A DNA stretch of 64,000 nt from Heterodontus francisci (Eukaryota), in contig NC_090399.1 in assembly GCF_036365525.1 (NCBI RefSeq), positions 46,780,430-46,844,429 of the forward strand, written 5' to 3'. A program made the translations under genes and the position numbers. The notes below the pieces were generated by a model that was not told the origin of the DNA, ran no database searches, and saw nothing but the letters and a program-made list of their open reading frames with translations. Positions 2,353-60,518 of the stretch are shown here, in pieces; the stretch's first letter is position 1, and every line of letters begins with the position of its first letter.

Positions 2353-3257
2353 TTATTTAGATGAGTATATTATTACAGTCAGGGGATGTTTAATCATATT
2401 CTTCAATTCATTTCTGAATTTTCTCTGGGAAACTGCATAAATAAACGTGTTTGTGCAGCAACTCAAAGTCTGAAGGATATATCCAGATTGTTCAGCAATG
2501 GCAAATGGAGCGTTATAATTTGCTTCTAAAAATTGAACATCTGTTAATTGTACATATACATTACATATGAGTGCTACCATCCACAAAAGTATAAAACTAC
2601 CCGATATGGCGAGTAATAAAATAACTGATTTTCTTCGGTTCTCCATCTCTGGATCATTGTGATTCTCACCAGTTTTGTGTCCTAGGAGTTTCTTCCTCAC
2701 TCTGTTGGCCAGTAAAATGTGCCTGACCGTCAGCACATTGAACAGTAAAATCAGAAGAAATGGTACAAATGGGGTTATAATAGTTTCCAACCACAAAAAT
2801 GCTACCCATGCGGGTAACATATAGAAGCTTGATTTCACATAGCAGGACCATGGTATACTGTCAATTATTTCCCTAGGTTCATATACAAAGTAGATTGGAA
2901 CACTTTCTAAAACGCTCAAAGTACACACCACTACTATCGCCACAGTTGCGGTTTTCGCAGTGCAGTAGTTTCTTCGTAGCTTCTGACAACAAATGGCCAC
3001 AAATCGATCATAGGTGAATGCGACAGTTAGCCAGACAGAACAATCAGTGGACGCAAAAAACAGAGCAAGGTTAAGACAGCAAATGGGAGTGTAGTTTAGG
3101 AATGAGTATGGAAAATAAGCATCTTTAATCTCATAGAGTACTACATCAAATATCAGGATCATTAGATCTGCCACTGCCATGGCTAACAGGTATCGGCTGA
3201 TGCATTTGGAGAGCTCGCAACGTCCATGGGCGAGAATCACAATTGTCATTAGATTAG
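2353..3257 (-). CDS. GPR139/GPR142-like class A GPCR copy 1, coding exon 2 (TM1 end to stop)
   Basis: 7TM ORF with LAMAVADL (TM2), YDRFVAIC (TM3), TPFVPF (TM5), SCCTNTFIY (TM7). Polypyrimidine tract + cag acceptor (tttttgcag|CT AAT CTA ATG) just beyond 3257; phase 1 joins exon 1 to read ...GIPANLMTIV. Confidence 0.93.
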
Positions 3258-3367
3258 CTGCAAAAAGGGAAAAATCAAAATAATCACTCTCCTTATATGA
3301 AAAGACTGAACAGTTGGCAATTCTTTCATGCGAACATTCGTGCACTCATTATATTTGAGCTCAAATG

Positions 3368-3560
3368 AGACTGACTGAGACCAGCGGTGTTTAAAGAGAG
3401 CCGCAATAGCGGGAAAAAAGGAGACTGAGTGAGACCAGCGGTGTTTAAAAAGTGCAGCGACAGCGAAAAAGGAGACTGAGTGAGACCAGGTGGTTAAAAA
3501 GAGCAGAGGCAGCGGGAAAGAACGAGACTGAGTGAGACCAGCGGTGTTTAAAAAGAGCTT
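3368..3560 (+). repeat. ~52-bp tandem monomers in CR1 5' UTR (~3.6 units)
   Basis: agactgagtgagaccagcggtgtttaaaaagagc... repeated; ~2.6 units in the paralogous copy at 27748-27890. Confidence 0.85.
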
Positions 3561-6500
3561 CTTTAAAAAGGGCAAACAGTGACGTCAGAGGAGAGCTGCA
3601 AGGTGATTGGTTGGTGAGTTGCAGCCGTTAGAATACCTTCAAAAATAAGAGGATCGTTGTTCTTTTTTTGGAAAACAATTTCTGGTGATTAGGTGAGTAC
3701 TACTAAAGTGTTTTTACTTTTTAAGGACTTTGGATTGAAGTGGGTAGAACAAGGCCCCTAGTATAATTAGTATTTTTTAATTAAGGCGTAACTTATTAAT
3801 CTAAGGGTGAGTCATGGCAGGAGAGCTCAGCCCCGTGATCTGCTCCTCCTGCGCTATGTGGGAAATCAGGGATGCTTCCAGTGTCCCTGGTGACCATGTC
3901 TGCAGGAAGTGTATCCAGGTGCAGCTACTGGGTACCCGCATTATGGAGCTGGAGCTGCGGGTGGATTTACAGTGGAGCATTCACGTTTAGCGAGGTGGTC
4001 ATACCACAGGTAATGGCTGCACAGGCAGAAAAGAGATGGGTGACCACCAGATGGATTAGTAGGTGCAGGCAGGTAGTGGAGGAGTCCCCTGAGGCCACCC
4101 CCTCTCAAACAGATATACGACATCGGATACTGTTGCGGGGATGACCTCCCAGGAGAAAACAGCAGGAGCCAAGTTCATGGCACCACGGAGGGCTCTGCTA
4201 CACAGCAGGTGAGAAAAAGGGTTGGAAGTGCTGTAGTGATAGGGGATTCTAACATAAGGGGTGCAGATAGTCCTTTCTGTGGCTGCAAACGAGACTCAAG
4301 CATGTTATGTTGCTTCCCTGGTGTTAGGGTCAAGGCTGTTTCGAAGTTGCTGCAGGACATTCTGAAAGGGGTGGGTGAGCATCCAGAGGTCATGGTCCAT
4401 ATTGGTACTAACGACATAGGCAGGAAGAGAGATGAGGTCCCGCAAAGTGAAATTAAGGGAGTTTGGCAGAAGGTTAAAAAACAGGGCCTCAAGGGTTGTA
4501 ATCTCAGGATTACTCCCTGTGCCACGTGCTAGTGAGGGTAGGAATAGGAGGAAAAGGCAAATGAATACGTGGCTGAAGAGCTGGTGTAGGCGGGAGGACT
4601 TCAGCTACTTGGATCATTGGGATCTCTTCTGGTGCAGAAGTGACCTGTACAAGAAGGACGGGTTGCATCTGAACTGGAGGGGGACCAATATCGTTGCAGG
4701 AGGTTGGCTAGTACCACATGGAAGTGTTTAAACTAGTCTTGCAGGTGGGGTGGGACCGAAAATAGTAGTCTGTCAGATGATATAGATGAGGCAAATGTAG
4801 AGGTTAAAGCAAGCAGGTCCAGTAGGCAGGCCAGGCAGGGGCAGGACTGGGAGCGTGGAAGGTCTGGTCAGCTAAACTGCACTTACTTTAATTCAAGAAG
4901 ACTTACAGTTAAGGCAGATGAACTCAGAGCATGCATCAGTATATGGGATTGTGATATTATAGCTCTTACGGAAACGTGGTTGAAGCATGGGCAGGACTGG
5001 CATCTCAATGTTCCAGGGTACTGACGCTTCCGGCCTGACAGAGCTGGAGCTAAGAGAGGAGGGGGAGTTGCACTATTGATTAGGGAGGACATCATGGCAG
5101 TAATTAGGGAGGATATCCCCGGGGAATGTCCAGCGAGGCTTTATAGGAAGAACTTAGAAATAGGAAAGGGGTGATCACTTTGATGGGAATATACTATAGC
5201 CCCCCCAATAGTCAGAGGGAAGTGGAGGAGCATATATGTAGGGAAATCACAAATAGGTGCAGAAATCAGAGGGTTGTAATAGTAGGTGATTTTAACTTCT
5301 CTAATATTGACTGGGACTGTCTTAGTGCTAAGGGATCAGATGGGGAAGAATTTGTTAAGTGTGTCCAGCATAGTTTTCTGAAGCAGTATGTGGATGGCCC
5401 TACTAGAGAAGGGGCTGCACTTCAACTCCTCTTTGGAAATGAGGATGGGCAGGTGGTTGATGTGTCAGTGGGGGAGCACTATGGGACCAGTGACCATAAC
5501 TCTATTAGCTTCAAGATAGTTATGGAAATGGATAGGACTGGTCTCAGGTTGAAGTCCTAAATTGGGGGAAGGCTAATTTCGATGGCACCAGACAGGAACT
5601 CTCAAAAGTTAAATGGGAGAGGCTGTTTACAGATTAAGGGACGTCTGGCAAGTGGGAGGTTTTAAAAGTGAGATAGGAAGTGTTCAGGGCCGGCATGTTC
5701 CTGTTAGATGGAAGGGCAGGTCTGGCAAGTTTAGGGAACCTTGGTTGATGAGGGATATTGAGGGTCTGGGCAGGACGAGGAAGGAGGCATATGTCAGGTA
5801 TAGGCAGCTGGGATCGAGCGAGTCCCTCGAGGGGTATAGGGGATGTAGGAGTGCACTTAAAAAGGAAATTAGGAGGGCAAAAAGGGGACATGAGATTTAC
5901 CTGGTAGATAAGATAAAGGAGAATCCTAAAAGATTCCATTAGGATATTAAGAGTAAAAGGGTAGCGATGGAGAGAGTAGGTCCCCTTAAGGATCAATGTG
6001 ACAATCTATGTGTGGAGCCACAGGAAATGGGCGAGGTCTTAAATGAATATTTCTCGTCTGTATTTACCGTGGAGAAGGTCATGGAATCTAATGAGTTCAA
6101 GGGATGGAACACCAATATCCTGGAGCATATCAACATTATGAAGGAGGAGAAGTTGGAGATTTTGAAGCGCATTAAGGTGGATAAATCCCCAGAGCCTGAG
6201 CAGGTGTATCCTAGGATGCTATGGGAAGCAAGAGAGGAGATTGCTGGGGCCCTGGCAGAGAATTTTTTTTAACATCGTTAGTCATGGGTGAGGTACGGGA
6301 AGACTGGAGGATAGCTAATGTTGCGCCTTTATTTAAGAAGGCCAGCAGGGATAATCCAGGGTACTACAGGCCGGTGAGCCTTACATCAGTGGTTAGAAAG
6401 TTATTGGAAGGCATTCTGAGAGACAGGATTTATATGCATCTGGAAAGGCATGGTCTTATTAGGGATAGTTACCATGGTTTTGTGCGTGGGAAATCATGTC

Positions 6501-7890
6501 TCACGAATTTGATTGAGTTTTTCGAGGAGATGGCCAAGAGGATTGATGAGGACAGGGCGATGGACGTTGTCTACATGAACTTTAGCAAGGCCTTTGACAA
6601 GGTCCCGCATGGTAGGCTGGTCCAGAAGGTTCGAACACATGGGATTAGGGTGAGCTAGCAAATTGGATACAAAATTGACTTGGTGATAGGAGGCAGAGGC
6701 TGGTAGTGGAGGGTAGTTTTTCAGATTGGCGGCTGGTGACCAGTGGTGTGCCGCAGGGATCGGTGCTGGGCCCTCTGTTGTTTGTCATATATATTAATGA
6801 CTTGGATGTGAATATAAGGGGCATAATTAGTAAGTTTGCAGATGACAACAAAATTGGTGGTATAGTGGACAGTGAAGAAGGTTGTCTAATGTTACAACAG
6901 GATATAGATCAACCGGAAAAGTGGGCAAGGGAGTGGCAAATGGAATTTAACGTAGACAAGTGTGAAGTGATGCATTTTGGGAAGTTAAACCAGGGCAGGA
7001 CATATACAGTGAATGGCAGGGCCCTGGGGAGTGTTCTTGAGCAGAGAGGCCTTGGGGTACAAGTACATAGTTCCCTGAAAGTGGCAACACAAGTTGACAG
7101 GGTGATGAAGAAGGCATATGGCATGCTTGCCTTCATCAGCCGAGGCATTGAGTACAAGAATTGGGACGCCATGTTACAGTTGTACATAACATTTGTTTGG
7201 CCGTATTTGGACTACTGTGTGCAGTTCCAGTCACCGCACAACAGGAAAGATGTGGTTAAGCTAGAGAGGGTGCAGAAAAGATTCAGAACAATGTTGCCTG
7301 GTTTGGAGGGCTTGAGTTATAAAGAGAGATTAGATAGGCTGGATCTTTTTTCCCTGGAGAGATAGAGGCTGAGAGTGGGCATGATAGAGGTATATAAAAT
7401 CTTGAGAGGCATAGATAGGGTAGATAACCAGAGTCTGTTTCCCATGGTAGGGATGACTAAAACTGGAGGGCATTGATTTAAGGTGAGAAGGAGGAGGTTT
7501 AAAGAGGATAAAAGGGGTACATTTTTCACAAAAAAAATGGTGGGTGTCTGGAATGAGCTGCCTGAGGAGGTGGTGGACGCAGGAACAGTTGCGACATTTA
7601 AGAGGCATATGGACAAGTACTTGAATGAGCAAGGCATAGAGGGATATGGAATTAATGCAGGCAGGTGGGATTAGTACAGATAGGCATTATGGTCGGCATG
7701 GATGCGGTGGGCCGAAGTGCCTGTTCCTGTGCTGTACGACTCTATGACTCTCCATGACTCTATGACATAGAGGGATATGGAATTAATGCAGGCAGGTGGG
7801 ATCAGTATCGCTGGGCATTATGGTCGGCATGGGCGTGGTGGGCCGAAGGGCCTGTTTCTAAGCTGTACGACTCTATGACTCTATGACTCT
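3368..7890 (+). mobile_element. Full-length degraded CR1 (HER1-type) LINE in the GPCR copy 1 intron
   Basis: 5' monomer repeats; ORF1 from ATG 3814 with CxxC..CxxC finger and SGNH esterase motifs (GDS..GTND..DGLH); ORF2 APE (GDFN, SDH) + RT (QGSVLGP, FADD) with frameshifts; (ctatgact)n tail; aaatg/aagtg flanks. Confidence 0.95.
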
Positions 7891-8149
7891 AAGTGTTTCA
7901 TACGGATGAGAAACCATTGGAATCGGGTGAAACGCTGGTTTCACTCGTCGGCCCATATTACAGTCCATTGTCTTCTCGTCAGGAAAATTGGCAAGGTGTA
8001 AAACCAGAGATTCACCCGATCGTTTCAGTTTCCCGAAGGCAGCATGAGGTCAAATTTGCTCCAACCAGGTAGATTGTTTGGCTGGTGCAGAGAAAGGAAA
8101 TTCACTACATTCCAACTTTTGCTTCTATGCACATTAATTGGAATGGAAA

Positions 8150-8660
8150 CAAAGCAGTTATTGCACAAGGATCAATCCAGGGACCACTGCTGTTCACATT
8201 TATATACACAACATGTACCCTGAAACCAGACATATAATTTCAAAATGTGCGAATGACACAAAGTTGGGTTTTCAGTTACTAAACATTATCTGAATAGTAC
8301 AGTGGGCATACAGATACATAGCTCAACAAGGTAATCAGGCCATAAAAATAAACAAAGCACTGAGTTACATTTCTGCGGGGAAGGATTAGAAACATTGAGA
8401 TGTTATGTTAAATTATATGGAAAGTTAGTTAGGTCCCATTTGGAGCACAGTGAACCTTTCTGTTTTTAATATACAAATGATACAAATGCACTGGAGAAGG
8501 AGCAAACATGTCTTATTCGAATGATATCAGAACTGAGAAGTTATACCTATCAGAAAGCACATCACAGGCTGCGTTCCTTTCTCGAGAAAAAAAAAAACTA
8601 GTCTGATGTACAATCTGATAGAGGTCACAAAGATTATGCAAGGTTTTGGTAGGGTAAACT
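8150..8660 (+). mobile_element. Old CR1 RT remnant (paralogs ~32320-32825 and ~56010-56530)
   Basis: QGSIQGPLLFTF-like and VRSHLEH-like degenerate motifs. Confidence 0.55.
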
Positions 8661-8749
8661 GCTATCTCAAAGATGTCGTGGTCCACAGTTTCATTTAATC
8701 CTTTGTCTCATCCAATGCCTTAACACATACTTTTTATCTTCATTTCAGA

Positions 8750-11450
8750 TGTTGAAGATTGCAATTTCCATCATACCATGGGTACCAAGGTCCCTTCAGA
8801 TCTGTCTTCCCCTTCACTACTTTCTGACCCCATCCCTTCTTCTAATATCACTGCTTGCTGTGTATTCACAATATGTGCGGACCTTCCCCTCTCTGACCTT
8901 GCACGGTCTGTCCTAAGGGAATGACACAGCTTTATATCCTTATCAACTCCCGCTCCCCCCCTCTCCCCCCACACACACACCTCAATTAATTTTGAACTTA
9001 GCACAACGTTGAGCTCGTCTTCCTTTGCCTTCATCTCTTCGCTCACTCTTTTGGCCAAGAGTCATCCCTCTACACAGCAAGCACTTTTAAAAATCTGCAA
9101 TCTTCTCCCTCCAACTGGACACCTGCATCTGGCCTCTTACCCTGTCTTGATCTTTTTTTATTGAGAATTGCAAGCGTGAAATCTACCATGTCAATTTCTT
9201 TACTCTCCGTTCTCTCATTCTAACCTGTCTCCCTCTTTACTTGCAATAGTCTATTCCCTCAGGCACAAGCCTAATATTGTTATCAAACCTGCCGACAGGA
9301 TGGTGCTATTGTTGACTGGCAAACTGACCTCTACCTAGCAGAGCTGGATGACAACTAATCGACACTTCCTCCCACATTCCCCTGGGTCATGATCCCAGCA
9401 CCAAAATTCAAGCCATTGTTTTGAGGACTGTCACTGACATCAAATACTCTTGCGATCTTCCCTCCACAGCTTCTGACCTCATAGTTCTCCAATCCAAAAC
9501 AGCCGTCTTTAACTTTCTTACCAAGATTCACATACTGGACAGCCCAAGAAACCTTTTGTTTCAGCCTGTTCCCACCCCACTGAACAGATTTCTTCCTGTA
9601 TTGAATCTATTTTTCTCAGCTTGTCCAGTCTCTTGACATCCAGATGCGTGACTCTTCTGATGCTTTCCGTTACTTCCACGGTTTCCACTTTCCTGGCCCT
9701 TACCGACTTTTCTGCATGACCGTCCATTCTCTCTGCACCTACATTCCCCACCAGGAGTATCTGAGGGTTATTCAATTCTTTCTTGAATTGATGCTCAACT
9801 AGTTTCCAACAACCACCATATTCCTCCACCTGACTGAATCTGTTTTCAAATTGAACAGCTGCACCTTTAAATTATCTCACTTCCTCCAAATTAAAGGTTT
9901 TGCTATGTGTACCAGCATGGGTTCTGGCTATACCTGCAAAGTTGTGCAATATGTGGAACATTCCTTGTTCCAGTTTTACTCGGTCTCCCTCCCTTAACTC
10001 TTTTTCAAGTATACTATTGACTGAATCAGTGTCTTTTCCAGCTGTTCCCCTGAAATGGAAAACATCATTAAATATAGCTCCAAGTTCCACCCGACTCTCA
10101 CATTCAAAGTGTCGATCTTCGACTCTTCCCTTCCTTTCCTGAACTCCCCTGTCTTAATTTCTGGGGTAGGCTACCAGTAGCTACCCATTAGAAGCCCACT
10201 GCTTCCACAGATATCTCGACTATCGTTCCTCAATGTCTGCTTTCTGTAACGACTTCATTCCATTCTCCCTGTTTCTCTGTCTCGGTCCCACTTGTTCTGA
10301 AGTTTGTTTTGAAGATGCCATATTCCAAACCAGTGCGTTTAAAGTTTCCTCCTTCATCCCGAACAGAGGTTTTCCCCCCACCCCACCCTTGGTTGATAGG
10401 GCCCTGGAACGTTTCCGACCAGTTTCACATACTTCTGTTCTCACCCCTTCCCCTCCCTCCCAGAATCATGATAGGGTGCCCCTTGTCTCACGTTCCTCCC
10501 ATCAATATACGTATTCAATGGATCATCCTCCTCCATTTTAGCCACCTAAAGCGTGATGCTCCCACCAAACAAAGCTTCCCCTCCTTTCCCTTTTAGCATC
10601 GCAAAGGAACCATTTTCTCAGCGAAACCCTTGTAGACTCCTTTATCACCTCAACACCCATCCCCTTCCCACAGCACCTTCTCCTCAATCGCCAAGGTCCC
10701 AAACACTCCTTCCAGGTGGAAGAGCGGGTTATGTGGACTTCTTTCTGTTTAGTATACTCTGTTCACTGCTCGCAATGGGATCTGGTCGATATTAGGGAGA
10801 CCAAACGAGGATTGGCTGATCGCTTTGCAGATACCGCTGCTCCACCTGCAAGCATGATCCTGAGGTCCTGGTTGCCTGCCATTTTACTTCTGCATCTTGT
10901 TATCACGCTGACATCTCTGTCCTTGGCTTTCTGCAGTGTTCCAATGAAGCTCAATGCAAGCTCGAGGAACAACACCTCATCTTCCCATGAGGCACTTTAC
11001 AGCTTCTGTGGATGCAACACTGAGTTCGACAAGTTCAGACTGTAAGCTCTGCCCCAATTTTTATTACTTTTATCTGCATATTTTTGTCTTAATCTGGTTT
11101 TGCTCTTGTTTTTGCTGTTCATTGATTTGCAATTGACAGAGCCATATCATTTATTCATTTATTTCTTTCTTCCATTACTCCTCCCTTTGCCTCTGCATCA
11201 CCAACTCGTTTTGTCAGTTAATGTCTGCCATCCTTTGTCCTGTCAGAGACCTTACTTTTTCTTCTTGCTCCACCCTCTCCATGTGATCTTCCTAAAAATA
11301 AACTATGACAATTCCGAGTTCTGACGAAAGAGGTTTTCAAACTGAAACCATAACTTGCTTTCTCGCCAGAGGTGCTGCCAGATCTGTTGAGTATTTGCAG
11401 AATTTTCTGTTTTTATTCCAGATTTCTGACAGCTGCAGTATTTTGGTTTA
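8750..11450 (+). mobile_element. Degraded Penelope-like element (RT + GIY-YIG) in the copy 1 intron
   Basis: IKPAD(K)G-like RT motif ~9280; LVYSVHCSQ..IRETKRGLADRF GIY-YIG remnant ~10750-10830; terminal repeat 11310-11450; boundaries approximate. Confidence 0.8.
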
Positions 11451-12074
11451 GTAAATCTATAAAAAGGTGTTTATAATTGTAGGTGAGAGCAGATCTACGT
11501 TCCATAACTGTCACGCAATCTCTGATGAATCTCAAAGGGAATTCAGGGCGAACGTTGTTCACCAGAATATTGTTCGAATGTGAAATGATCTACATCTATG
11601 CTGCAAGTACTTTGTCCTAATTTGTGAACCACTGGTATCACTCAGCAGGTCAGGCAGCGTCTGTGCAGAAGCATAATTATCGTTTCCCATCCCTGATCTT
11701 GTATCAGAACTGATAAGTAAGATGAAAGGTTAAATGCTTCTCCCTGCTTTCCGAACTACTAAGTGATTACAGTATTTGTTATATTTGTTCAGATTTTCGG
11801 TATTCCCTCCATTTTGTTTCTTAAAATGTTAAGACTCTGTACAAAGGAAAGCGAATTAAGTTATTTAATTTAAAACTTCAGAACTATGTTGCCTGTTAAA
11901 TTATTCCCTTGAAATCCTGACGTATTCTTTCTATTATTTGATTGATGCTGTTAATTATTGCCTGTATGTCAAGAATAACAAACCAAAGAGGATTTATTAT
12001 CCACCGAAAAGCAGTAGCAGTGACACTGTTAAAGACAATTAATGATGAATATTAACCATTGATTAACGGCTTAC

Positions 12075-12144
12075 CTGGAATTCCAACTATCGCAAGAATA
12101 GGGTAGTAAATATTTTCTATCTGGATGATTACCGGCTGTTCCAT
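12075..12144 (-). CDS. GPCR copy 1, coding exon 1 (MEQPVIIQIENIYYPILAIVGIP + 1 nt)
   Basis: ATG at 12144, 70 nt open, G|gtaag donor at 12074. Phase matches exon 2, giving 975 nt / 324 aa. Same 70-nt exon in all three repeats. Confidence 0.9.
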
Positions 12145-12212
12145 GTTTGGAGAGAAGTGGTTTCGTCTGTTTGCATTGTGGGCATGCAGATCTGCTTTCA
12201 AAATAAGGTCTC

Positions 12213-12269
12213 ATTTATACCCGAGAGAAACCTCAAGTGACAAAAAGAGCATTGCACAATAATTTGCAT
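12213..12269 (-). promoter_or_regulatory. Putative GPCR copy 1 core promoter: TATA, C/EBP-like site, octamer
   Basis: TATAAAT (12213-12219, minus) ~70 bp upstream of the ATG; ATTGCACAAT 12251-12260; ATGCAAAT octamer 12262-12269 (minus). Confidence 0.6.
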
Positions 12270-15200
12270 TAGTTACAGTCTTTTGAACAAACAGGTTTAC
12301 CTAATCCGTATTTACTCCTACTGATCACTTGCAGACATACCCATATTGACATTAGAAAAGTCTGGAGAATTCAGTCGATCACATTTTAGAAATAAAACAT
12401 GTTGATCTCTGCAGTTCAACAAAAATGATATATATTCTTTAATCAGAAGACATAAAATTGCAGTTTAGTGGAAGGCAACTAATGAAGTAAACGTGCTCAT
12501 TTGTGGTGGAGTAACTCTATCTACAATGTATTCGTTCATTGTTGTGTTTTTGATGTTCTTCAGGCCCGTAATACCGACATATATACACAGAAAGTGATAT
12601 TCTTAGTGGAATACTGCAATATGGATAGTCTGAAATGTTTGCATCTGGTATTCATAGGTGATAACCATAGGGATTGTTCTGATGTGTATGAGAAAAAAAA
12701 ACAATGATGTGGATAAGGAACTCTGCAGCCATTTGTCAGGTTCATGGAAGTTCATGGACGCAAATTACTAAGGAATTGGAGGGGGCCAAGAAGATTTCAT
12801 GCCGGTGTAAAGCGGGAACCGGGAGCAGGACCCGCTTCCACCCATTGCACTAAGAACAAGGAGTTCCGCTTGAAGCTGACTTATTTTGGAAATTGACTCC
12901 GAGTACTGAGGTCAGAATGTACCCATTTCGTGGATTAAAGATAGATTGGGCATTTTGCACTGCGTTAATGCTATTTCCATTATCTTTCAAAAGTTCGTTT
13001 TATACTTGATCCCGAAAGTTACATCCACAATTGGAATAATCCCAAACAGAACATCGAAGCAAGCATTGCAACTTGTGACATATCCAACCCATGATCTCTC
13101 CACCTCCCTCTCAGAATTGTTACTATTGGCCCCACTTCAAGACTGCATGTTGGAGACGGTTCATTGGATTTGTTTGCAGTAACTCTGGAATAAAATAATA
13201 TTGTTTTGTGTTTTATATTGCATGATTTCAAATAGGATGAAAAAACGCTACTTTGAATTAGATTTACCGTACTGTATAATTACGAGAATTCCACTGTTGG
13301 CATGCTAGTGATCATGTTAACTGTGTAGACCTGTCAGTCTATTCAAGAAGAAACATCAAATCTGCACACGGTTTATTTGCTTTGTTTCTACCTTTGGTTG
13401 GAAATCAATGAATGGTGAAAATTATATTTAGTTAAAGACACATCAGTTCTAAAGTGCATGCGTATGGACTGACACTGAAAGGAGTTGGATGAATTCTCTT
13501 TGATTGTGGACTTGAAGGCAATCTTGAGTGGAAGGAAAATATACATAAATGTATTTTGTTAGTTCTCAAGATTGTGGAAAGTTTGTTATTTTTTATTCAT
13601 CCAATATCAAAGTGCTTTATCAAACTCCCTTATCAATGCTCACTCGTGGGGTAGATTACCCCTACTGGGGAAGGAACTGACTTTGTTCCAATGCCTTGGA
13701 TAGCACCTTCTTGTGTTTTCCTGCCACGATGTAGCAATTACACTGCAAATAAATTCTGAACGTTGGACTAAGTAATAGAATTCAACTGACGACATGATAT
13801 TTTCTCTTATAATGAGAACAGATACAACAAGCTAAATTTAATTGGCACCCCACGTGAATCATGATGCTCGATCACAAAATTGGTCTGTCTGGGAATGTTT
13901 TGCTCCATCCCTGGCAGACGAGTAGAGAAGTTAACCCTTTCCGTTGACAGTTTTACGTTTGAATTAATTCACCACACTTTAACATCTCTATTATTGATTT
14001 GGCATTATTAAATGGCAAAGTTGTAAATAGACAGAGGAAGATTCTGATTAGACAGATTTGTCCATTGTGCTCTTGGGCAGAGCCACAATGGCTTTTTCAT
14101 TTTTTTTGCTTTAAACAAGTGCCGATGGTTTGCAGGTCCACATAAATACTCATACCGCAGCAGGAGATCTAATAACATTAGGAATTTAAGAACTTACAAT
14201 GGTTATACTTTGAATTAATTATTTTCCTTGCAAAGACGTGTCCTTAACTTATTTAAGGTCATCTGTTATCTTCTAAGACCAAGTGCTTGATAAGGGGTGA
14301 TATGGATGTTATTTCCGAATTAAATGCAAGAACTTATATTTCCGATGCAAAACACCATGTAAAATCACCAAACCTGAGCCACATTTTTCTGTTATTGGAA
14401 TTTATAAGATAAATTAATAAGTTGCTATTTTAAGCACTCAAAGGGAACATTTACGGTATGTTTCAGGGATCATGTTGTTTTTATTGGAAGAAACGGATGC
14501 AACGCAGTCTCAGCAGTTCTTAAGTATCAAGGAAGAAAATGTTGGGAGAAATCAAACTGAATATTGACAAAAAGATGTCTGTTCAGCAATACTGTTTGAA
14601 CATTTTGGGGGATTTTGAAATGATAACATGTCAGGCCTAATATCTCATCCCTCAGAAATAGTATTGTCTAAAATAAAGAACAGACAAACAAATTATGCTT
14701 AATTTATGGCAGACCTTGAGGAATCCATGACATCAGCCGAGAGCTCCAACTCAATCGGCTGCCCTTGGTGCCAAACAAGCAGCAGGTATGGGAAGTGGGG
14801 AGCCAAGCGGTGGTACGAAATTATGTGAAGGTGTTGTGTTTGCAGTAATGCAGTAGCGTGGTATTTGCATTTCCAACAGACCTTTGATAAAGCACCATAT
14901 AGTGTCCTGTACAAGAAAGGATTGTTTATAAGGCCTCACATTAACAAAATGTGTAAATTAATTAGATCAAGTGGAAATGTTTGATTTTTGTTTTAAAATA
15001 TAATAAGAATATTGTGTTGGATAGTAAAGTACCTCTACATCTCAGGCATGAGATAGAATTGTAATTAATGGGATGTATAAAATTGAATACAAGGAAGTGA
15101 TTGAGGATAGGAGATAGAGACCCAGAAATTATATCACCAGAGGGGAATAGGAAAATCACCTTGGTCCAATATATAAAATGGTATCAATATGACATTAATG

Positions 15201-17000: not shown

Positions 17001-17021
17001 TTTAGAATATCTCTGATGCTA

Positions 17022-19090: not shown

Positions 19091-19095
19091 CCGAT

Positions 19096-21568: not shown

Positions 21569-21569
21569 T

Positions 21570-36607: not shown

Positions 36608-36675
36608 GTTTGGAGAGAAGTGGTTTCGTCTGTTCGCATTGTGGGCATGTAGATCTGCTTTCAAAATAAGGTCTC

Positions 36676-45509: not shown

Positions 45510-45559
45510 ATTACCGGAAGCACGTAATTCCCTACTTTCACAGCTATGGGTCGTAACTA

Positions 45560-46125: not shown

Positions 46126-46409
46126 TTTCTTTCCATGTTTATATATTCTATTTCCGGGATTCGATTTGTTCTGGTTCTGCTTCTCCATGGTCTAAACGTT
46201 TTCAAGATTTCAGTGACTAGCAGACTCTTCAGAGGCTCCAGTGTTACAGCAATGGGAAGAGTCCCAGGACGGAGAGATGGAGTGCTGAAGGAAATCCTTC
46301 ACTTCACTTCTTGCTCTATTGGAGAATTGTATTATGTCAAGGGTAGTTTTCCTCATTTAGTTCAGTGCAGAATCAAATGTGGTATATGTAGTGTCAGTCT
46401 ATCATACCG

Positions 46410-48328
46410 ATTGAATCGAGTTGGCTGAAGTCTGGCATCTGTGATGCTAGGAACTTCAGGAGGAGGCCGAGATGGATCATCACCTCGGCACTTCTGGCTG
46501 AAGATTGTTGTAAATGCTTCAGCCTTATCTTTCGCACTGATGTGCTGGATTCCCCCATCATTGAGGATGGGTGATATTTGTTGAGCCATCTCATCCACAG
46601 TTATTTAGTTGTCCATCACCATTCATGGCTGGATGTAGCAGGACAGTAGAGCTTAGACCTGATCTGTTGGTTGTGGGATCACTTAAATGTGTCTATCGCA
46701 TGTTGCATACACAGTTTGGCGCTCAAGTAGTCCAGTGTTATAGCTTCACCAGGTTCAAACCTCATTTTGAGGTATACCTGGTGCTGCTCCTGGCATGTCC
46801 TCCTGAACTCTTCATTGAACCAGGGTTGCTTTCCTGGCTTGATGGTAATGGTAGAGGGGGGGGATTTTTTAAATTCATTCGTGGGATGTGGGCGTCGCTG
46901 ACTAGGCCAGCATTTATTACCCATCCCTAATTGCCCTTGAACTGAGTAGCTTGCTACGCCATTTCAGAGTTAACCACATTGCTGTGGGTCTGGAGTCACA
47001 TAAGGCCCAGACCAGGTAAGGACAGCAGATTTGCTTCGCTAAAGGGCATTAGTGAACCAGATGTGTTTTACAATAATTGACAATGGTTTCATGGTCACCA
47101 TTAGACTAGCTTTGAATTCCAGATTTTTTGTTAATCGAATTCAAATTTCACCATCTGACATGGTGGGATTCAAAACCATGTCCCCAGAGCATTAGCCTGA
47201 GCCTCTGGATTATTGGTCCAGTGGCATTACCACTACGCCACCACCTCCCCGGGCCATGAGGTTACAGATTGTGCTTGAGTATAATTCTGCAGCTGCTGAT
47301 GACCCACAGCACCTTATGGATGCCCAGTGTTGCATGACTATATCTGTTCGAATTCAATCCCATTTAGCACGGTGGTAGTGCCACACAACACGATGCAGTG
47401 TATGCTCAATGTGAAGTCGGGACTACATCTCCACAAGGACTGTGTGGTGGTCACTCGTACCAATACTGTCATGGACAGATACATCTGTGGTAGGCAGATT
47501 AGTGAGGACGAAGTCAAGTATGTTTTTCCCTCTTGTTTGTTCCCTTACCACTTGTTGCAAACCCAGTATAGCAGCGATGTCCTTTAGGACTCGCCCAGCA
47601 CGGTCAGCATTGGTGCAACCGAGCCACTCTTGGTGATGGGCATTGAAGTCCCCCATCCAGAGTACATTCTATGCCCTTGCCACCCTCAGCGCTTCCTCTA
47701 ACTGGTGCTCAACATGGAGGAGTACTGATTCAACTGCTGAGGGAGGGTGATCGGAGGTAATCAGCAGGAGGTTTCCTTTCCCATCTTTGACCTTATGCCA
47801 TGAGACTTCATGTGGTCCGGAGTAGATGTTGAGAAATCCCAGGAATACTCCCTCCGGACTGTATACCACTGTGCCGCCACCTCTTCTGGGTCTGCCCTGC
47901 TGGTGGGACAGGACATACCCGGAGATGGTGACGGCAGTATCTGTGACATTGCCTGTAAGGTCTGATTCCGTGAGTCTGACTATGTCAAGTTGTTGCTTGA
48001 CCAGTCTGTGGGACAAATCTCCCAACTTTTGCACAAGCCTACATATGTTAGTAGGGAGGATTTTGCAGGGTTGAAAGCTGGGTTTGCCGTTGTCGTTTCC
48101 GGTGCCTAAGTCAGTGCTGGGTGATCTATTCGATATCATACATTTTTATTGACTTCGTAGTGGTTAGGTACGATGGAATGGCTTGCTAAGCCATTTCAGA
48201 GGGCATCTCAGAGTCAAGCACATTGTTGTGGGTCTGGAGTCACATGTAGGCCCGACGAGGTAAAGACAGCAGATTTCCTTTCCAAAGGGCATAAATGAAC
48301 CAGATGGGTTTTTAAATTAATCGACAAT
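46410..48328 (-). mobile_element. Paralogous copy of the APE-type LINE 5' half
   Basis: ORFs 47669-48139 (endonuclease N-terminus, DIVRLTES) and 47423-47656 (GDFNAHH..SDH). Confidence 0.82.
46865..47250 (-). mobile_element. tRNA-headed SINE short form, paralogous copy
   Basis: Collinear with 19548-19940. Confidence 0.83.
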
Positions 48329-48621
48329 ATCCACCACTAGCATTCAGTCACTTCGCATATATTCCTAATTGATCTCTATCTTTGCTCCTCACACAATGAA
48401 GTAGAATTCCATCTTTGTGGATTGGCTTTTCCTGACTGTAAAAACGGAGATTAAAATGGACTAATGTTTCCAGCAAGTACTGTTCGACACCTCAGTGTCA
48501 TGAAGGGGGCAAATCTATTGAAAATAGACTCCAATATTTTCTCCTTATCGCCATACCCTTGATCAGTTGATCAGTTGATAGTATTGAAAAGGAAACATGT
48601 CAATATCGGACTAAGCCTGCA

Positions 48622-49228
48622 GGGGGGTATAGAGTATAAAAGTTGGCAAGTCATGTTGCAGCTGTACAGAACCTTAGTTAGGCCACACTTAGAATATTGT
48701 GTGCAATTCTGGTCGCCACACTACCAGAAGGACGTGGAGGCTTTGGAGAGGGTACAGAGGAGGTTTACCAGGATGTTGCCTGGTCTGGAGGGCATTAGCT
48801 ATGAGGAGAGGTTGGAAAAACTCGGATTGTTTTCAATCGAACGACGGAGGTGGAGGGGCGACATGATGGAGGTTTACAAAGTTATGAGCGGCATGGACAG
48901 AGTGTATAGTCAGAAGCTTTTTCCCAGGGTGGAAGAGTCAGTTACTAGGGGACATAGGTTTAAGGTGAGAGGGGCAAAGTTTAGAGGGGATGTGTGAGGC
49001 AAGTTTTTTACACAGAGGGTGGTGAGTGCCTGGAACTTGCTGCCAGGGGAGGTGGTGGAAGCAGATATGATAGCGACGTTTGAGACATCTTGACAAATAT
49101 ATGAATAGGAAGGGAATAGAGGGATATGGGCCCGGGAAGTTTCGGCAGGCATCAAGAAAGGCGCAGGCTTGGAGGGCCGAATGGCCTGTTCCTATGCTGT
49201 ACTGTTCTTTGTTCTTTGTTCTTTGTTC
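48622..49228 (+). mobile_element. CR1 3' fragment with (gttcttt)n tail
   Basis: GIEYKSWQVMLQLYRTLVRPHLEYCVQFWSP...; 3' stem-loop and tail. Confidence 0.88.
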
Positions 49229-52200
49229 ATGCAAGTAAAGTACCATAAGACTGACAATTGTGAATTGCACAGAATACTAATTTAAACAAAATAAATTTTG
49301 CAACAACAAAAACTTGTACCAAGGCGCTTCCAAGATGCATGATCAGGCACAAAGCTCGACAGAGTCAAAAGGGGCGTAAGGGTGGCTGTCCTCAGGATTG
49401 GAGAACGTGATTGATTTAGGTAGAATTGTGAAGAAGGAGCGAGAGATGGAGAAAGTTCGGGAGAGAATTAGAATGTACGACATAGAAGAGGTCCATTCGG
49501 CCCACCCGTGAGCTCTTTGATGGAGCTTTCCATTTCAATTCTACACCCCAGCTCCTTTCCCATAACCCAGAAATAATAATACGATCAACGTACACGTGAA
49601 AATTCCTTTGAAAACTTCCAATGGAATCATCTTCCATCACTCTTTCAAGTATCGCTTTCCTGATCTTACAACAAAACCACTCTGTGTGAGAAAAAATCTC
49701 CTAATTTCCCCTCTAGTTTTTGTTTTTTTTGCCAGTTATGTTACACTGGTTTCCGACTCACATAACAAAGGAAATAATTTCTCACTACTTGCTCTACAAC
49801 AATCTTCGTAGTGTTGATTATCTCTGTTCTGTACCCCCTTAATCTTATCTGATCTGAGGAGAACAGTCCAAGCATCTGCAATACCACAACATAACTGAAG
49901 TCCCTCATCGCAGGTTACATCCTGGAAACGCCATCTGTATATTGCCAAAGTCCATCATTTCCAACTTATCAGCATTATATTGTTTCTGCAATACGCCTCA
50001 TAGTTAATCATACTATCTATCTTCCTTCTGATATTTGCTCCTGTCCTGTCTACTATTTGCTACAGTCTTAAGATACGTATCATCGGCAAACTTCGAAATT
50101 GTAAACCCTATGCACAAGTCAAGGTCATTTATATTTAACAAGAAATGCAATGTTTCTACCATTGAACCTTGTGGTCACGCATTGCATGCCTTCCTTCAAA
50201 GGAATATTTATTCTCACCACTTCTCTCTCCCTTCTCTCCTTTAGCTAACTTCGATTACATGTTATCATCGTTCATCTACTGCCATGTGCTTCTATTCCCC
50301 TAATGAGTCTGCATGCTGGTACTTTATCAAAAACCTTTGGAAAGACCATGTACAGAACTTCAACGACGCTGCTTTCATTTACTCTTTCTGTTACTTCATC
50401 AAAGAACTCCATCAGGGTAGTCATGCATTATTTCACTTTAACATGACCAGACATGCTGTCCCTTATTTTCCCTTGCTTCTTCAAGTGAGAATTAGTTTAT
50501 CGTTGACAATGGTGTTTTGTAGATTTAGCATCATCAATGTTAGACCCATCAGCATGTAGTTTACAGTTTTATCTATCTCCTCTTTTTTGAGCATGGGTTT
50601 AACATTCGTAATCCTGCACGGCTCTGGGGCCACTCCCAAAACCAATGAAGACTGGAGCATGTGGGCAGTGCGACTGCTACTGAACAATACCTTCCCTCAG
50701 CAACCTGGGATACATTTAAACTGGAGCTGCTGGCATGTTCAGTTTGAGTGATGCCAAAATATTGAGCACATCTTTCCGATCTAATGTTATTTAATTCAAT
50801 GTCTAAAGTCACCCTCCTCTACTGTGCCATAACTTAATCTTTGTCTTTTGTGAAGACCAGTACAAACGATTCATTAAGCACCCCAGTGATGCCATCTTCA
50901 TTCATAGTAAGATTTTTTTGCCCCAATTGTACCCACCATTCCTTTAACTTCTTGTTTAGTTTTGCCTGATGATAAAATATATATTCGTTTATGTTTATGT
51001 TACCCACTAATCTGTTCTCACCATCTCTCTTTGCCATTCTTAGATTCTTTTCAAATTGTCCTCTGAACACTGTATTCTGTCCGTTTCTGAATAATACACT
51101 GTACCTAACATTTATCATAAACCTTCGTTTTCTGTTTCATTTCACTCTATTTCCTTTATCATCCAAGAAGCTGTAACTTGGTATGCCCCATCTTTCCTCT
51201 TAATGGGAATATGTTCGGTTTGTAATAGAACTATCTCTGCTTTGAAGTAGTGCCATTGCTTATTTTCTGCCAGGTTGGTAGATTCTTCTGCTAGTTTCTG
51301 TCATTGAAATTCTTTCCCTTCCACTTGGATATTCTGACCGTTTATTTTCCTTGATCACTTTCCAGAATCACTTTTAAATGCTAGTATACCATGCTCTCTA
51401 GTACTTACAATGTCTCCACTGCCATACCCTCCATTGGCCTAGATTATTCCTGGAAACTAGTTCACTCACTACATGTTTCCCCATTGGACTATAAACATAC
51501 TGACTAGCGAATCTCTCACGTGCAGAATTCAGTAATTCGTCACCTTTTATTGTGCTCCGGTCGACCCTCCCAGCCTCTAGTAAAATAATTGATAACACTC
51601 TACCATGACAGATAGATTGATTTTACACTTCTCTGACACATCCCTGCCAGTCTTCTCATCTGTTTTCTTTGCACTATTAGGGGAACTACAGTAAACTCCC
51701 AATAATGCACAAGCTCATGTTTTGTTCCCCGTGTCTGATCAAAACGATTCAGAATTTGAATCCTCTAATACTTCATTCTTCTGTGGAACTGTAATAATAT
51801 TCTTGATGAATACTTTCAATCCTTCTGCTTTTAGAGTCATAGAGTCATCGAGTTATCCAGCACAGAAACAGGCCCTTCGAACCATCGTGTCTGTAGCAGT
51901 CATCAAGCAACTATCTATTCTCATCCCATTTTCCAGCACTTGGACCGAAGCCTTGCATGCTATGGCGTTTCAAGTGCTCAGATAAATACTTCTTAATTGA
52001 GTTTTCCCTCATCCATCCTGATGACATTGTAGCCAGGACCTTTAAGTTCTGATTTTTGTTTTCTTTCGGGGGATTTGAGTTTTGTTGGCAAAGCCAGCAG
52101 TTGTTGCCCATCAACAATTGCCGTTAACAAGGTGGTGGTGAGGCAGCTTCTTGAATTCAACATAAAATAGTTTTGAATATAATTCATCAGGATAATAATT

Positions 52201-53329
52201 TTAACTGACTTAATGATATAAGAAAATATTCCGACCCCATCCCTAATACTTTATCTCCCTGTTTTGTTTGTATTAAACTGATTAATTTTACATGATGCAT
52301 GTGCATGCTGTTGTTCATTTTTAAGAATCCTTATTTTACCTTTGATTCCAATTCTACATCCAAATATTCACAACACATCATTACAATTCATGATTTTTAA
52401 TGAAGCATTCAATTGAATTTTGAAATTAAATGATGCATCCAGCAGTTCTATAATTATTCCATATTCGTCTGTTAGAATATTAAATTGTTGTAATAGTTTG
52501 AAAAACCTCATTTACTTTCAAAGTACTAATGAGAAATCTGTGTCCTTGATATCTGCAGAGAAATATCCGACAAGGTTAATGCACATTCATGGCCAAATAT
52601 TGAAGTTGTTAGGTCCTGGTGTGCTTGCACTCCCAACATTGATCTGGTACACTACTTCCACCGCACCCACCAGAAAACACATTCGGCTGTCGAGTTCTTC
52701 AAGATTCCATGTTGTGCCTCTGAGGCGTTGCCAAATGTGAGGTACCCAATCTTGCAGTACTCCATTTCCATTGCATGCGAAATGCAAGGCCCCCGTCCGT
52801 GCTAATTAACCTCAGAAACACTATTACAGCACTGCAAAACCGGGCCATCACTTGGTGATGTGATCCAAGGCACGCACACTGCAATACCGCTGCTATTTAA
52901 TACTAGATCTTAAATCCGATTCAATTAAATCTGAATACCAAGCCCCAGCTTTACTAATTGTCTGAATTACCCCTTAATAGGGCAAAACTTATGGCCAGCC
53001 AATGCCCTAGAGTTGACCTGTTGGATTACCATACCAGCGCTGTGAAATTATAGATCAGAAGCAATGTTACCAAAATCTATCTCACGCCGCAATTCCTCCT
53101 AAACTCACAAATACGTTCCTCGCACCACATTATCCCTCAGTAGCAGAAGCAGTCCTTTCAGATTTGATTTCCCCTTTTACCAAATGTGTTGCATGCTGGA
53201 GGCCCTAAATAAGATGGGGATTATTTGGGATCGTGGACAAGCGCATTTCTCGTAAAAGGTAACAACACTGATTTGATTTGCACCGAGGTTCGACAGAATC
53301 AATGAAGAACTTGACTGGGTTTATTTTTA

Positions 53330-53616
53330 GAGAACAACGAACAAAGAACAGTACAACACAGGAACAGGCCATTCGGCCCTCCAAGCCTGCGCCGATCTTG
53401 ATGCCTGCCTAAACTCAAACCTTCTGCACTTCCGGGGACCGTATCCCTCTATTCCCATCCTATTCATGTGTTTGTCAAGATGTCTCTTAAACGTCGCTAT
53501 CGTATCTGCCTCCACCACCTCGCCCGGCAGAAAGTTCCAGGCACTCACCACCCTCTGTGTAAAGAACTTGCCTCGCACATCCCCTCTAAACTTTGCCCCT
53601 CTCACCTTAAACCTAT
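53330..53616 (-). mobile_element. CR1 3' fragment, same insertion as 24860-25172
   Basis: [22 protein letters not shown]; identical junctions. Confidence 0.85.
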
Positions 53617-54724
53617 GGTAGAATACATATGGATAGAACTTATACTCTGCTTATACATAGCTGGAGGACCCTCTGGAATTCTGAGCAGCACGCCACCGAA
53701 GGATATATTGGCCTTGGAAGAAGTGCCGCACAGATTTACTACATAGGTACCTGGATTTTAAAGTTTAAGTTACGATGAGAGATTACGTAAACTAGGGTTG
53801 TATTTCTTCGAACATTTCAAACTGTTAATGGGAACTGATATGGTCGGTAGAAATAAACTATTTCTGCTGCTTTGGAAGTCCACGACTCAGAAACACACTC
53901 TAAAATAGAGCAAAGCCTTTTAGGAGAGATATTGGAATGTACTTGTACAAGCCAGCTTAGTATAAGTTTGGAACTCATATCCGAAAATGACAATTAATCC
54001 CAGATCAATTATTAATTAATTTCAAAACTGAGGGTGATTGATTTTTTCAACAAAGTGTATTAATGTATAGCGGGTGAAGATGGATAAATTGAGTCAGGTC
54101 ACAGATCAGCCATTGTCTCAATGAATAGTAGAACAGACCTGAGCAACTAATTGACTCACTCTTTTTCCAAGGTTCCTATATTCCAATAAATAACCTTAGA
54201 AGGCCAAAATAAATGTAATTAAAAATATTTCACCATCAACTTAAATCAGTAGTCCAGGCATTATTGGCTTATGATTTGCTGAAAATATCCCAACTTAGAC
54301 TCCAAGAAGGACGGCCGTTTTTTTCACTTTGAGTGCTCCCGACTTCCCTTCCCCATCTATTCATTCGAATTGACAAGCGAAAACAGAAACAGGCCGGCAT
54401 GAAATAGGAAACTATGTACCATATTGTTCCGAGTTCGAGTAATTCGACAAGAGATTTATGTGTGTACGTGTGACTGTAATTGCCCTTCTGTGACAGATGG
54501 AGGTTAGCAAGTTTCGCTTATTTTAATTCTGTCTGTAGTGTGCAATAGATGATTTTGAAAGGGCCACGCGACATACGCATCGTCTGATGTTCCACTCCAT
54601 TTAAGTCACTAGAATGTAAACTTGGGTTGGGATTGAAATGAATGTTAATGCGACACTGGCTCCTTTACACTAATTCCCAACAACTAAATTCTCATTTTTG
54701 TTTAATTTTCAGAAACCTTCCAAC

Positions 54725-55629
54725 TTATTTCGATGAGCATATTATTACAGTCAGGGGATGTTTAATCATATTCTTCAATTCATCTCTGAATTTACTCTGG
54801 GAAACTGCATAAATAAACGTGTTTGTGCAGCAACTCAAAGTCCGAAGGATATATCCAGATTGTTCAGCAATGGCAAATGGAGCGTTATAATTTGCTTCTA
54901 AAAACTGAATATCTGTAAATTGTACATATACATTACATATGAGTGCTAACATCCATAAAATTATAAAACTACCCGATATGGCGAGCAGTAAAATAACTGA
55001 TTTTCTTCGGTTCTCCATCTCTGGATCATTGTGATTCTCACCATTTTTGTGTCCTAGGAGTTCCTTCCTCACTCTGTTGGCCAGTAAAATATGCCTGATC
55101 GTCAGCACATTGAACAGCAAAATCAGAAGAAATGGAACAAATGGGGTTATAATAGTTTCCAACCACAAAAATGCTACCCATGCGGGTAACATATAGAAGC
55201 TTGATTTCACATAGCAGGACCATGGTATACTGTCAATTATTTCCCTCGGTTCATATACAAAGTAGATTGGAACACTTTCTAAAACGCTCAAAGTACACAC
55301 CACTACGATCACTGCAGTTGCAGTTTTCGCAGTGCAGTAGTTTCTTCGCAGTTTCTGACAACAAATGGCCACAAATCGATCATAGGTGAATGCGACAGTT
55401 AGCCAGACAGAACAATCAGTGGATGCAAAAAGCAGGGCGAGGTTAAGACAGCAAATGGGAGTGTAGTTTAGGAATGAGTATGGAAAATAAGCATCTTTAA
55501 TCTCATAGAGTACTACATCAAATATCAGGATCATTAGATCTGCCACTGCCATGGCTAACAGATATCGATTTATGCATTTGGAGAGCTCACAACGTCCATG
55601 GGCGAGAATCACAATTGTCATTAGATTAG
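54725..55629 (-). CDS. GPR139/GPR142-like GPCR copy 3, coding exon 2
   Basis: Intact 298-aa ORF plus 8 nt to the cag acceptor; ~95% aa identity to copies 1 and 2. Confidence 0.93.
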
Positions 55630-59600: not shown

Positions 59601-59685
59601 ATAGGTTCTGCCAGATCTGTTGACTATTTCCAGAATTTTCCATTTTTATTCCAAATTTCTGATAGCTGCTGTATTTTGGTTTAGT
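56625..59685 (+). mobile_element. Degraded Penelope-like element in the copy 3 intron
   Basis: Collinear, more divergent; contains a different SINE insertion. Confidence 0.78.
57016..57356 (+). mobile_element. Near full-length HE1-like V-SINE (tRNA head) in the Penelope of unit 3 only
   Basis: A-box tggcgcagtgg 57022-57032, B-box-like gggtttaattc, V domain, gggctgaagggtctg stem-loop, taaa tail. Confidence 0.88.
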
Positions 59686-60448
59686 AAATCTACGTTCCAT
59701 AAATGTCACAAAATCTCTGATTTCCCAACGGGAATTCAGAGCAAACGTTGTTAACCAGAGAATGGTCCGAATGTGAAATTCGCTACCAAAAGGAATATTG
59801 TCGTATATGCCATAGATGGATTCAGGAGGAAGCTACTTCAACACATGAAGAATAAAGGAATAGAAGGCCATATTCATAGCTTAGAAAATGAACGTGGGAG
59901 GAGGTTCCTGTGAAGCTTTAAAAATGGTGTAGACATTTTAGGCTCAATAATCTGCATCTATGCTGCAAGTACTTTGTCCTAATTAGTAAACCACTGGTAT
60001 CACTCAGCAGGTCAGGCAGCGTCTCTGCAGAATCATAATTATCATTTCCCATCCCTGATCTTGTACCAGAACTGATAAGTAAGATGCAACGTTAAATGTT
60101 TCGCTCTGCTTTCTGAACTACCGAGTGATTACAGTATTTGTTATATCTGTTTCAGATTTCCGGTATCCCCTCCATTTACTTCTTACAATGATAAGACTCT
60201 ATGCAATGGAAAGAGAATTAACTGATTTAATTTAATGCTTCAGAACAACCTATATTGCCAGTTAAATTATTCCATAAAAATATGTCGGAAACTTGAAGTA
60301 TTCTTTCTGTTATTTGATTGATGCTGTTAATTATTGCCTGTGTATCAACAATAACAAAACAGAGGATTTATTATTAACCGGAAAGCAGGAGCAGTGATAC
60401 TGTTAAAAACAATTAACGATTAATATTAACCATTGATCAGCGACTTAC

Positions 60449-60518
60449 CTGGAATTCCAACTATCGCAAGAATAGGGTAGTAAATATTTTCTATCTGTAT
60501 GATTACCGGCTGTTCCAT
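60449..60518 (-). CDS. GPCR copy 3, coding exon 1 (MEQPVIIQIENIYYPILAIVGIP + 1 nt)
   Basis: ATG at 60518, 70 nt, G|gtaag donor. Confidence 0.9.

Follow-up and report, generated by a model that had tools for sequence, protein, structure and literature searches.

What does a shark do with a cluster of receptors that databases name after GPR139? The question is raised by a 64,000-nucleotide stretch of the genome of the horn shark Heterodontus francisci (assembly GCF_036365525.1, contig NC_090399.1, positions 46,780,430 to 46,844,429, forward strand; hereafter the window), which contains three intact two-exon G protein-coupled receptor (GPCR) genes, C1, C2 and C3. All three lie on the − strand and encode 324 amino acids without a stop codon or frameshift. 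The reading favored here, to which we give about an even chance, is that they belong to an elasmobranch repertoire of class A GPCRs that grew by tandem duplication, recognizes many ligands and has a putative chemosensory role. In the gene structure, constraint, phylogeny, lower bounds on family size and pocket divergence, taken together, we have high confidence.

Three intact class A receptor genes

In each gene a GT-AG intron of phase 1 separates coding exon 1 (70 bp) from exon 2 (905 bp), and the region extends from the stop codon of C1 at 2353 to the ATG of C3 at 60518. The spliced C3 protein is identical at 324/324 residues to H. francisci protein P0004, named 'probable G-protein coupled receptor 139' by NCBI; the splice model thus matches the public annotation. 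Pairwise, C1, C2 and C3 differ by 14, 15 and 17 amino acids. A preliminary description of this DNA had reported three intact 324-residue paralogs about 14–17 residues apart, which these measurements bear out. It had also reported unusual motifs, of which the short N-terminus (24 residues ahead of N1.50), DRF, the lack of P6.50 and NTFIY were found as described, but the TM6 motif given as FILLWM reads FIILWM in C3. The sole N-glycosylation sequon of C1–C3 (NYT, residue 78) is in extracellular loop 1 (ECL1); none is present in the N-terminus.

All three proteins match Pfam 7tm_1 well above its cut-off (70.7–76.5 bits vs 30.5). The predicted model has a normal fold with seven transmembrane helices (TM1–TM7), helix 8 and an ECL2 hairpin at a mean predicted local distance difference test (pLDDT) score of 76, and aligns with class A receptors at a TM-score of ~0.7. 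From the 7tm_1 match and the seven-helix fold, the window proteins are class A (rhodopsin-like) GPCRs. The fold search returned only generic class A matches, with GPR139 absent among the best 50 matches listed, and is non-discriminating. There are no Rfam matches within the window.

Coding changes among C1–C3 comprise 26 non-synonymous and 22 synonymous substitutions. Non-synonymous changes are fewer than expected under neutrality (p=0.0003), and all frames were still open in 0 of 2,000 neutral simulations. It is the split from C3 that carries most of the constraint, with dN/dS of 0.19 and 0.22; the youngest copies, C1 and C2, may be relaxed. Despite 95% identity the three proteins differ at 3.32 and 7.42, but these 2 of the 23 variable sites are no excess.

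A large receptor family in sharks and rays

A protein search with C1 exon 2 recovered 2,362 clusters (90% identity) at E≤1e-5 among 3,808 candidates. The best 120 of these 2,362 clusters include 114 that are named, all from sharks and rays of 16 species, and 6 that are unnamed; Heptranchias contributes 30, H. francisci 25, Pristiophorus 17, Rhinoraja 14, and other taxa the rest. No chimaera protein occurs among the named matches listed. On one 74.5-Mb sequence lie 24 of the 25 H. francisci clusters. A search with a related newt protein added two clusters on other sequences, giving H. francisci at least 27 distinct members. Because the newt query retrieved only 4 shark matches among 25, this word-based search captures little across clades and most of the 2,362 clusters probably belong to the family. 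Divided among a few dozen genomes, they suggest on the order of 100 genes per genome, an extrapolation and not a count.

An exhaustive profile search of the 50% representatives returned 137 clusters at E<1e-30. The 180 near-complete family proteins (all 122 matches and 58 of 88 representatives, the rest being too short; a 1,244-residue model was excluded) make up 17 groups at 50% core identity and 43 at 60%. The strongly expanded birth-and-death family proposed in the preliminary description is thus seen in elasmobranchs, a narrower group than the chondrichthyans named there, where a family with at least 27 clusters in one species forms a separate lineage instead of the few ordinary orthologs that it had set against its own proposal.

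Family members carry automatic names as different as sex peptide receptor-like, FMRFamide receptor-like, galanin receptor 2a-like, vasopressin V2 receptor-like and GPER1-like, and this scatter hides the family in name-based counts. Exon 1 is missing in 89 of the 180 database models, which would indirectly fit scarce transcript support and low or restricted expression.

A lineage separate from GPR139

Is the database name a guide to kinship? Among solved structures GPR139 is the best match to the family profile (65 bits; next 51). The same profile scores the newt protein at 220 bits, a coelacanth protein at 203 and Srw-like proteins at 108–113. Against C1 exon 2, human GPR139 is barely alignable (33 bits). 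Human GPR139 and its zebrafish ortholog share 70% identity, and the residues reported to bind Trp/Phe in GPR139 are E3x32, F3x33, H5x43, W6x48, R6x51 and N7x38 (PMC7318219). Read from alignments, the window genes keep two of these six (F3.33 and W6.48) and replace E3.32 with L/F, H5x43 with E, R6.51 with A and N7x38 with Y. Judged by identity, profile scores and pocket residues against human GPR139 alone, these sequences place the shark family as a distant relative of GPR139/GPR142, a separate lineage and not an ortholog. The 'GPR139' label is the name of the nearest human hit, and the GPR139 ligand should not be transferred with it. The earlier argument from amino-acid sensing by GPR139/142 is not supported by the same evidence, with two of six pocket residues kept and orthology not found.

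In a 50-protein tree the shark family and a gene of amphibians and sturgeon are sisters in a clade with 100/99 support. The sister gene (P0213 and P0390-P0409) is represented by 20 amphibian clusters from 20 species and by Acipenser, and is apparently single-copy in amphibians and sturgeon; none was seen in amniotes or teleosts by a search of limited sensitivity. A second single-copy clade, that of the coelacanth protein (P0224 clade), spans coelacanth, teleosts, amphibians and reptiles, and sharks own a separate ortholog within it (P0272, P0275, P0279). In a quick tree shark and ray proteins are mixed within subfamilies, so the expansion began before the shark/ray split.

The GPR139 mislabel is also carried by P0224, P0231 and P0272-P0389; the 120 entries listed range from sharks to reptiles and include neither mammals nor birds. 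Two P0224-clade models are named as TMEM183A isoforms, which suggests linkage to TMEM183A. Two more clades of the wider group are present in the tree, one of P0254 and P0265, the other of P0252, P0258 and P0260. Trp at 4.50 is absent in the shark family and the related clades. None of three shark proteins matches Pfam Srw (PF10324), and three of six non-shark relatives do.

Both single-copy clades also have the short N-terminus and lack P7.50, and the second of them has the DRF-like and P6.50-less forms as well. Odd motifs and a short N-terminus were rejected as sensory signs, being mostly shared with single-copy relatives.

A diversified pocket on a fixed signalling core

Mean identity was compared between 34 pocket-facing positions and 57 other outer-TM positions. 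In the amphibian orthologs the pocket is the more conserved (0.98 vs 0.83), as it is in the second single-copy clade (0.74 vs 0.61). Among 58 representatives of the expanded family, which are unnamed and assumed to be of shark origin, the order is reversed (0.28 vs 0.39, p=0.0095). All four contrasts of a single-copy with an expanded set show a significant reversal (interaction p=0.0001-0.0016), including the one at matched overall TM identity (0.65 vs 0.66; interaction p=0.0016).

The inner, G-protein-facing half is the most conserved part in sharks (0.59–0.75), and among the shark paralogs no part of the helices varies more than the pocket positions. Horn-shark paralogs are 96–100% fixed at N1.50, D2.50, C3.25, R3.50, C45.50, P5.50, W6.48, N7.49 and Y7.53. 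A 14-site pocket string, its sites chosen after the motif and pocket table had been viewed, takes 25 forms in 27 horn-shark paralogs vs 2 forms in 20 amphibian orthologs. The latter have a basic pocket, with invariant K6.51, K6.55 and R7.35 and a net charge of +3 in 20/20; net charge is −3 or lower in 23 of the 27 horn-shark paralogs, which are those near the query. These sequence contrasts indicate ligand diversification on a fixed signalling core. With the G-protein-facing half fixed and the pocket diversified, different members most likely bind different ligands.

Origin of the array

The window is a tandem segmental repeat, and its features are collected in Table 1. The older split between C1 and C3 shows 11–16% divergence in non-coding DNA. 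Left of ~26.7 kb, unit 2 is closer to unit 3 (17–30 differences per 400 columns) than to unit 1 (29–57). Right of that point it is closer to unit 1 (6–41 vs mostly 35–71 beyond exon 2). The switch in resemblance at ~26.7 kb indicates that an older duplication produced C1 and C3, and that C2 arose later, from an unequal crossover close to the 3' end of exon 2. The later event duplicated a block of ~24.5 kb, including an already-dead pseudogene on the + strand. An assembly artefact was rejected because the copies differ by 4–16% and by private LINE (long interspersed nuclear element) insertions.

The pseudogene remnants are ~55% identical to their best match. One LINE fragment and a missing TM4/ECL2 region are common to both copies, which argues for one pseudogene that was passively copied; two independent deaths were rejected on the same grounds. 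The two copies of a divergent pseudogene noticed earlier are indeed present, but they record a single death that was duplicated. Exon 1 of the pseudogenes was not found, the best alignment scores being 60 and 56.5 vs a shuffled mean of 55.5.

LINEs also shaped the introns. A ~4.3-kb LINE on the + strand, antisense to the genes, occupies the introns of C1 (3421-7762) and C2 (27747-32060) in copies that are 92% identical, and is absent from C3; intron sizes are consequently 8.8–8.9 kb in C1 and C2 vs 4.8 kb in C3. At its low-coordinate end is a 51–54-bp tandem repeat, ~100 bp from the splice acceptor. A 937-codon open frame (42620-45433, +) runs from ~75 pseudogene codons, read in another frame, into a LINE that is truncated at its 5' end and encodes endonuclease and reverse transcriptase domains. 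This LINE is missing from pseudogene copy 1, and its ~860 stop-free codons suggest a young insertion.

Table 1. Coordinates of receptor genes, pseudogene copies, duplication and candidate promoters in the window.
Feature	Position	Strand	Remarks
C1 exon 2 (TM1 inner half to stop)	2353..3257	-	Pfam 7tm_1 match
C1 coding exon 1 (N-terminus and outer TM1, 70 bp)	12075..12144	-	
C1 candidate promoter: octamer ATGCAAAT 125 nt and TATAAA 75 nt upstream of ATG	12214..12269	-	motif match only
C2 exon 2	26733..27637	-	unequal-crossover junction at or near its 3' end
C2 coding exon 1	36538..36607	-	
C2 candidate promoter: octamer and TATA, spacing as in C1	36677..36732	-	motif match only
C3 exon 2	54725..55629	-	spliced protein identical to P0004
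C3 coding exon 1	60449..60518	-	
C3 candidate promoter: octamer and TATA, 50-nt spacing as in the others	60591..60646	-	motif match only
Pseudogene copy 1: exon-2 remnant of a different subfamily (TM1-TM3, LINE fragment, TM5-TM6)	17958..19087	+	
Pseudogene copy 2: lesions as in copy 1	42568..46363	+	carries a younger 2.7-kb LINE at ~42846-45509
Recent tandem segmental duplication: ~2.2-26.7 kb repeated as ~26.7-54.6 kb	2200..54600		4-9% substitutions

Promoter motif and expression leads

Ahead of each gene the octamer ATGCAAAT, which we take to be a site for POU2 factors, lies exactly 50 nt upstream of a TATA box (− strand; 12262-12269, 36725-36732 and 60639-60646). The 8-mer occurs 12 times in the window vs 5.4 expected, and the other nine copies have no TATA at that spacing. 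As one inherited occurrence of an 8-mer that is common in the window, it is a weak lead. A pseudogene promoter or exon 1, which would have served as an independent test of the octamer, was not found, and the N-terminal extensions of database models held no readable promoter signal. POU2 factors act in B cells and tuft cells, with POU2F3 in tuft-type chemosensory cells (PMC9576728). Since POU2F3 belongs to the same factor family as the immune octamer factors, the octamer does not separate a chemosensory from an immune reading. Three unnamed short-contig matches start in apparent intron sequence; they look genomic and were rejected as expression evidence. Whale-shark supplements gave no family matches in 12 of 24 files.

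What the repertoire may detect

We propose that one ancestral jawed-vertebrate gene gave rise by repeated tandem duplication to the elasmobranch repertoire, and that amphibians and sturgeon would still carry this gene, apparently as one copy. Each paralog would bind its own ligands in the outer pocket and signal through a common G protein, with the set acting as a detector array for varied external chemicals. Candidate sites of expression are olfactory microvillous neurons, taste buds, or solitary chemosensory/tuft-type cells. The window subfamily, with its acidic pocket (D3.37, E5.42, E7.35), is predicted to prefer cationic ligands, for example amines or basic peptides, over free Trp/Phe. Large vertebrate GPCR families that behave in this way are mostly chemosensory (OR, TAAR, V1R, V2R, T2R), with the MRGPRs and FPRs as nociceptor or immune cases. 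Distant relatives of the shark family also match Pfam Srw, a group that includes candidate mollusc chemoreceptors (PMC3963977), which we count in favor of a chemosensory role.

Several observations weigh against that role or the steps leading to it. The window proteins match neither Srw nor any chemoreceptor family in Pfam. Pocket identity is below that of other outer-TM positions in the 27 horn-shark paralogs (0.54 vs 0.61, p=0.073) and in the 122 matches (0.53 vs 0.60, p=0.075), neither difference being significant, and the 34 pocket positions follow what we take to be the general class A list. A variable pocket among paralogs neither tests for positive selection nor tells sensory from immune use. 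The 50-protein tree was built under LG+G4 without a mixture model, with a midpoint root and a chosen sample per clade, and without GPR139 or GPR142. Between C1 and C2 dN/dS is 0.57 on 21 changes, which is compatible with relaxation in the newest copies. Finally, no GPCR appears in the accessible catshark top-50 list for 'brain & olfactory epithelium' (PMC11979771), a list that misses the known V2Rs as well.

The same expansion and pocket data would fit a surveillance repertoire of nociceptors, mast cells or leukocytes, comparable to mammalian MRGPRs or FPRs and directed at basic peptides, irritants or microbial products. We consider this unlikely, though it is the strongest competitor. The acidic pockets of most horn-shark paralogs count for it, an acidic pocket for cationic ligands being a feature of MRGPRX2. 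MAS1 and its relatives are reportedly missing from cartilaginous fish (PMC8455134), which leaves their role open, and octamer factors, whose motif precedes the TATA box in 3/3 genes, drive immunoglobulin promoters (PMC9576728). But the octamer is a single inherited observation, and the POU2F3 link to tuft cells suits a chemosensory role too. Sequence kinship with MRGPRs or FPRs is lacking, the best solved-structure matches being GPR139 and neuropeptide receptors. The family name is absent from a nurse-shark spleen supplement (one small file) and from heart transcriptome supplements, both weak tests.

Less probable again is a set of receptors that share a single endogenous peptide or metabolite, or a few of them, and whose copies drift upward by unequal crossover in a LINE-rich genome and are mostly redundant or decaying. 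The array was visibly made by unequal crossover with a dead passenger aboard, and the C1–C2 dN/dS is compatible with such drift. The invariant basic pocket of the sister gene implies one fixed ancestral ligand, and the ECL2 hairpin of the predicted model is of the peptide-receptor type. Against drift stand significant purifying selection on deeper branches, the retention of subfamilies in both sharks and rays, and a pocket that is less conserved than neighbouring TM sites among the representatives, the reverse of the single-copy clades. Very improbable, in our estimate, is the premise of the database label and of the preliminary description, that these are amplified aromatic amino-acid receptors of the GPR139/GPR142 type. 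GPR139 is the best solved-structure match for both single-copy clades as well as for the family profile, F3.33 and W6.48 are kept, and TM7 lacks P7.50 as in GPR139. However, the other four Trp/Phe residues are replaced, the 33-bit match to C1 contrasts with 70% identity from human to zebrafish, and the 65-bit profile score falls below those of the newt, the coelacanth and even the Srw-like proteins.

Significance

The family challenges the published picture of sharks as having few chemoreceptors and GPCRs; the surveys behind that picture counted six named families. A survey of 1,527 genomes mined six chemoreceptor families, and the shark family is not among them in the accessible text; cartilaginous fish have the smallest olfactory repertoire of the vertebrate groups there (mean 43.8 genes) and a mean of 4.1 taste receptors (PMC10869828). 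A 'relative paucity' of GPCRs has also been noted in these animals (PMC8455134). A term search found no 'GPR' in the main text of four papers on shark genomes and olfaction (PMC8455134, PMC10620051, PMC10468316, PMC10116579), and no publication describing a GPR139-like expansion in sharks was found in a search that subscription papers and several supplements lay outside. Lineage-expanded GPCR repertoires are a known kind; the shark family and its origin appear undescribed.

Tentatively, and with somewhat more doubt than confidence, we suggest that the family is a seventh vertebrate chemoreceptor family, independently recruited in sharks and rays from the GPR139/FMRFamide/Srw branch of peptide-type GPCRs, with on the order of 100 genes per genome. 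If true, that number would exceed all known shark olfactory and taste receptors combined and would help account for keen chemical senses in animals whose canonical repertoire is tiny. At least 27 distinct members in one shark, and probably many more, under the automatic 'GPR139' label would change the receptor-poor picture whatever tissue uses them. The amphibian ortholog, with its fixed pocket and unusual S1.50/N2.50, is a target for deorphanisation in Xenopus and a route to the ancestral ligand.

Comparison with known systems

GPR139/GPR142 are the nearest characterised relatives among solved structures, and resemble the shark proteins in the lack of P7.50 and in F3.33 and W6.48. The intron of GPR139 presumably lies just ahead of N1.50, as it does in the shark genes. 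GPR139 is likewise a two-exon gene (PMC7318219). Unlike GPR139, conserved as it is between human and zebrafish, the shark family consists of dozens of fast-diverging copies, with four of six pocket residues changed and both P6.50 and R6.51 lost.

The amphibian/sturgeon sister gene, likewise labelled 'probable GPR139' and ~29% identical to C3, has the same short N-terminus (24–26 residues before N1.50 in 18/20) and a similar motif at the entry to TM6. It differs from the shark family in keeping P6.50 and DRY, in S1.50 and N2.50, and in forming one cluster per species. The P0224 clade belongs to the same wider group; its models break at the same point before N1.50 and mostly lack P6.50. By a match of names, we would guess that it is the 'NMOGPR' or 'Orphan 139-like' family of Furlong & Seong 2017 (PMC5207463). 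The table of that paper lists both families as 'unclear', and its accessible text does not mention a shark expansion.

Among the look-alikes of the shark proteins in the ESM Atlas are FMRFamide-receptor-like and Srw-bearing clusters, and a common origin of GPR139/142 with MIP-R, FMRFaR and MyoR has been reported (PMC8514136). Of 90 Aplysia candidate chemoreceptors, 29 are Srw-like (PMC3963977). The shark proteins differ from this Srw/FMRFamide/MIP-sex peptide receptor group in scoring none for Srw, and chemosensory use in sharks would be an independent recruitment.

Position 3.32 in the shark family is L/F, and not the Asp that we take to be typical of amine receptors. No MRGPR or FPR occurs among the 35 solved-structure matches of C1 exon 2 or the 20 of the family profile. 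The OR, TAAR, V1R, V2R and T2R families differ from the shark family in sequence membership, as its proteins match only 7tm_1 in Pfam. The likeness to them is one of behaviour: tandem clusters of paralogs with birth and death, and a variable pocket on a fixed signalling core.

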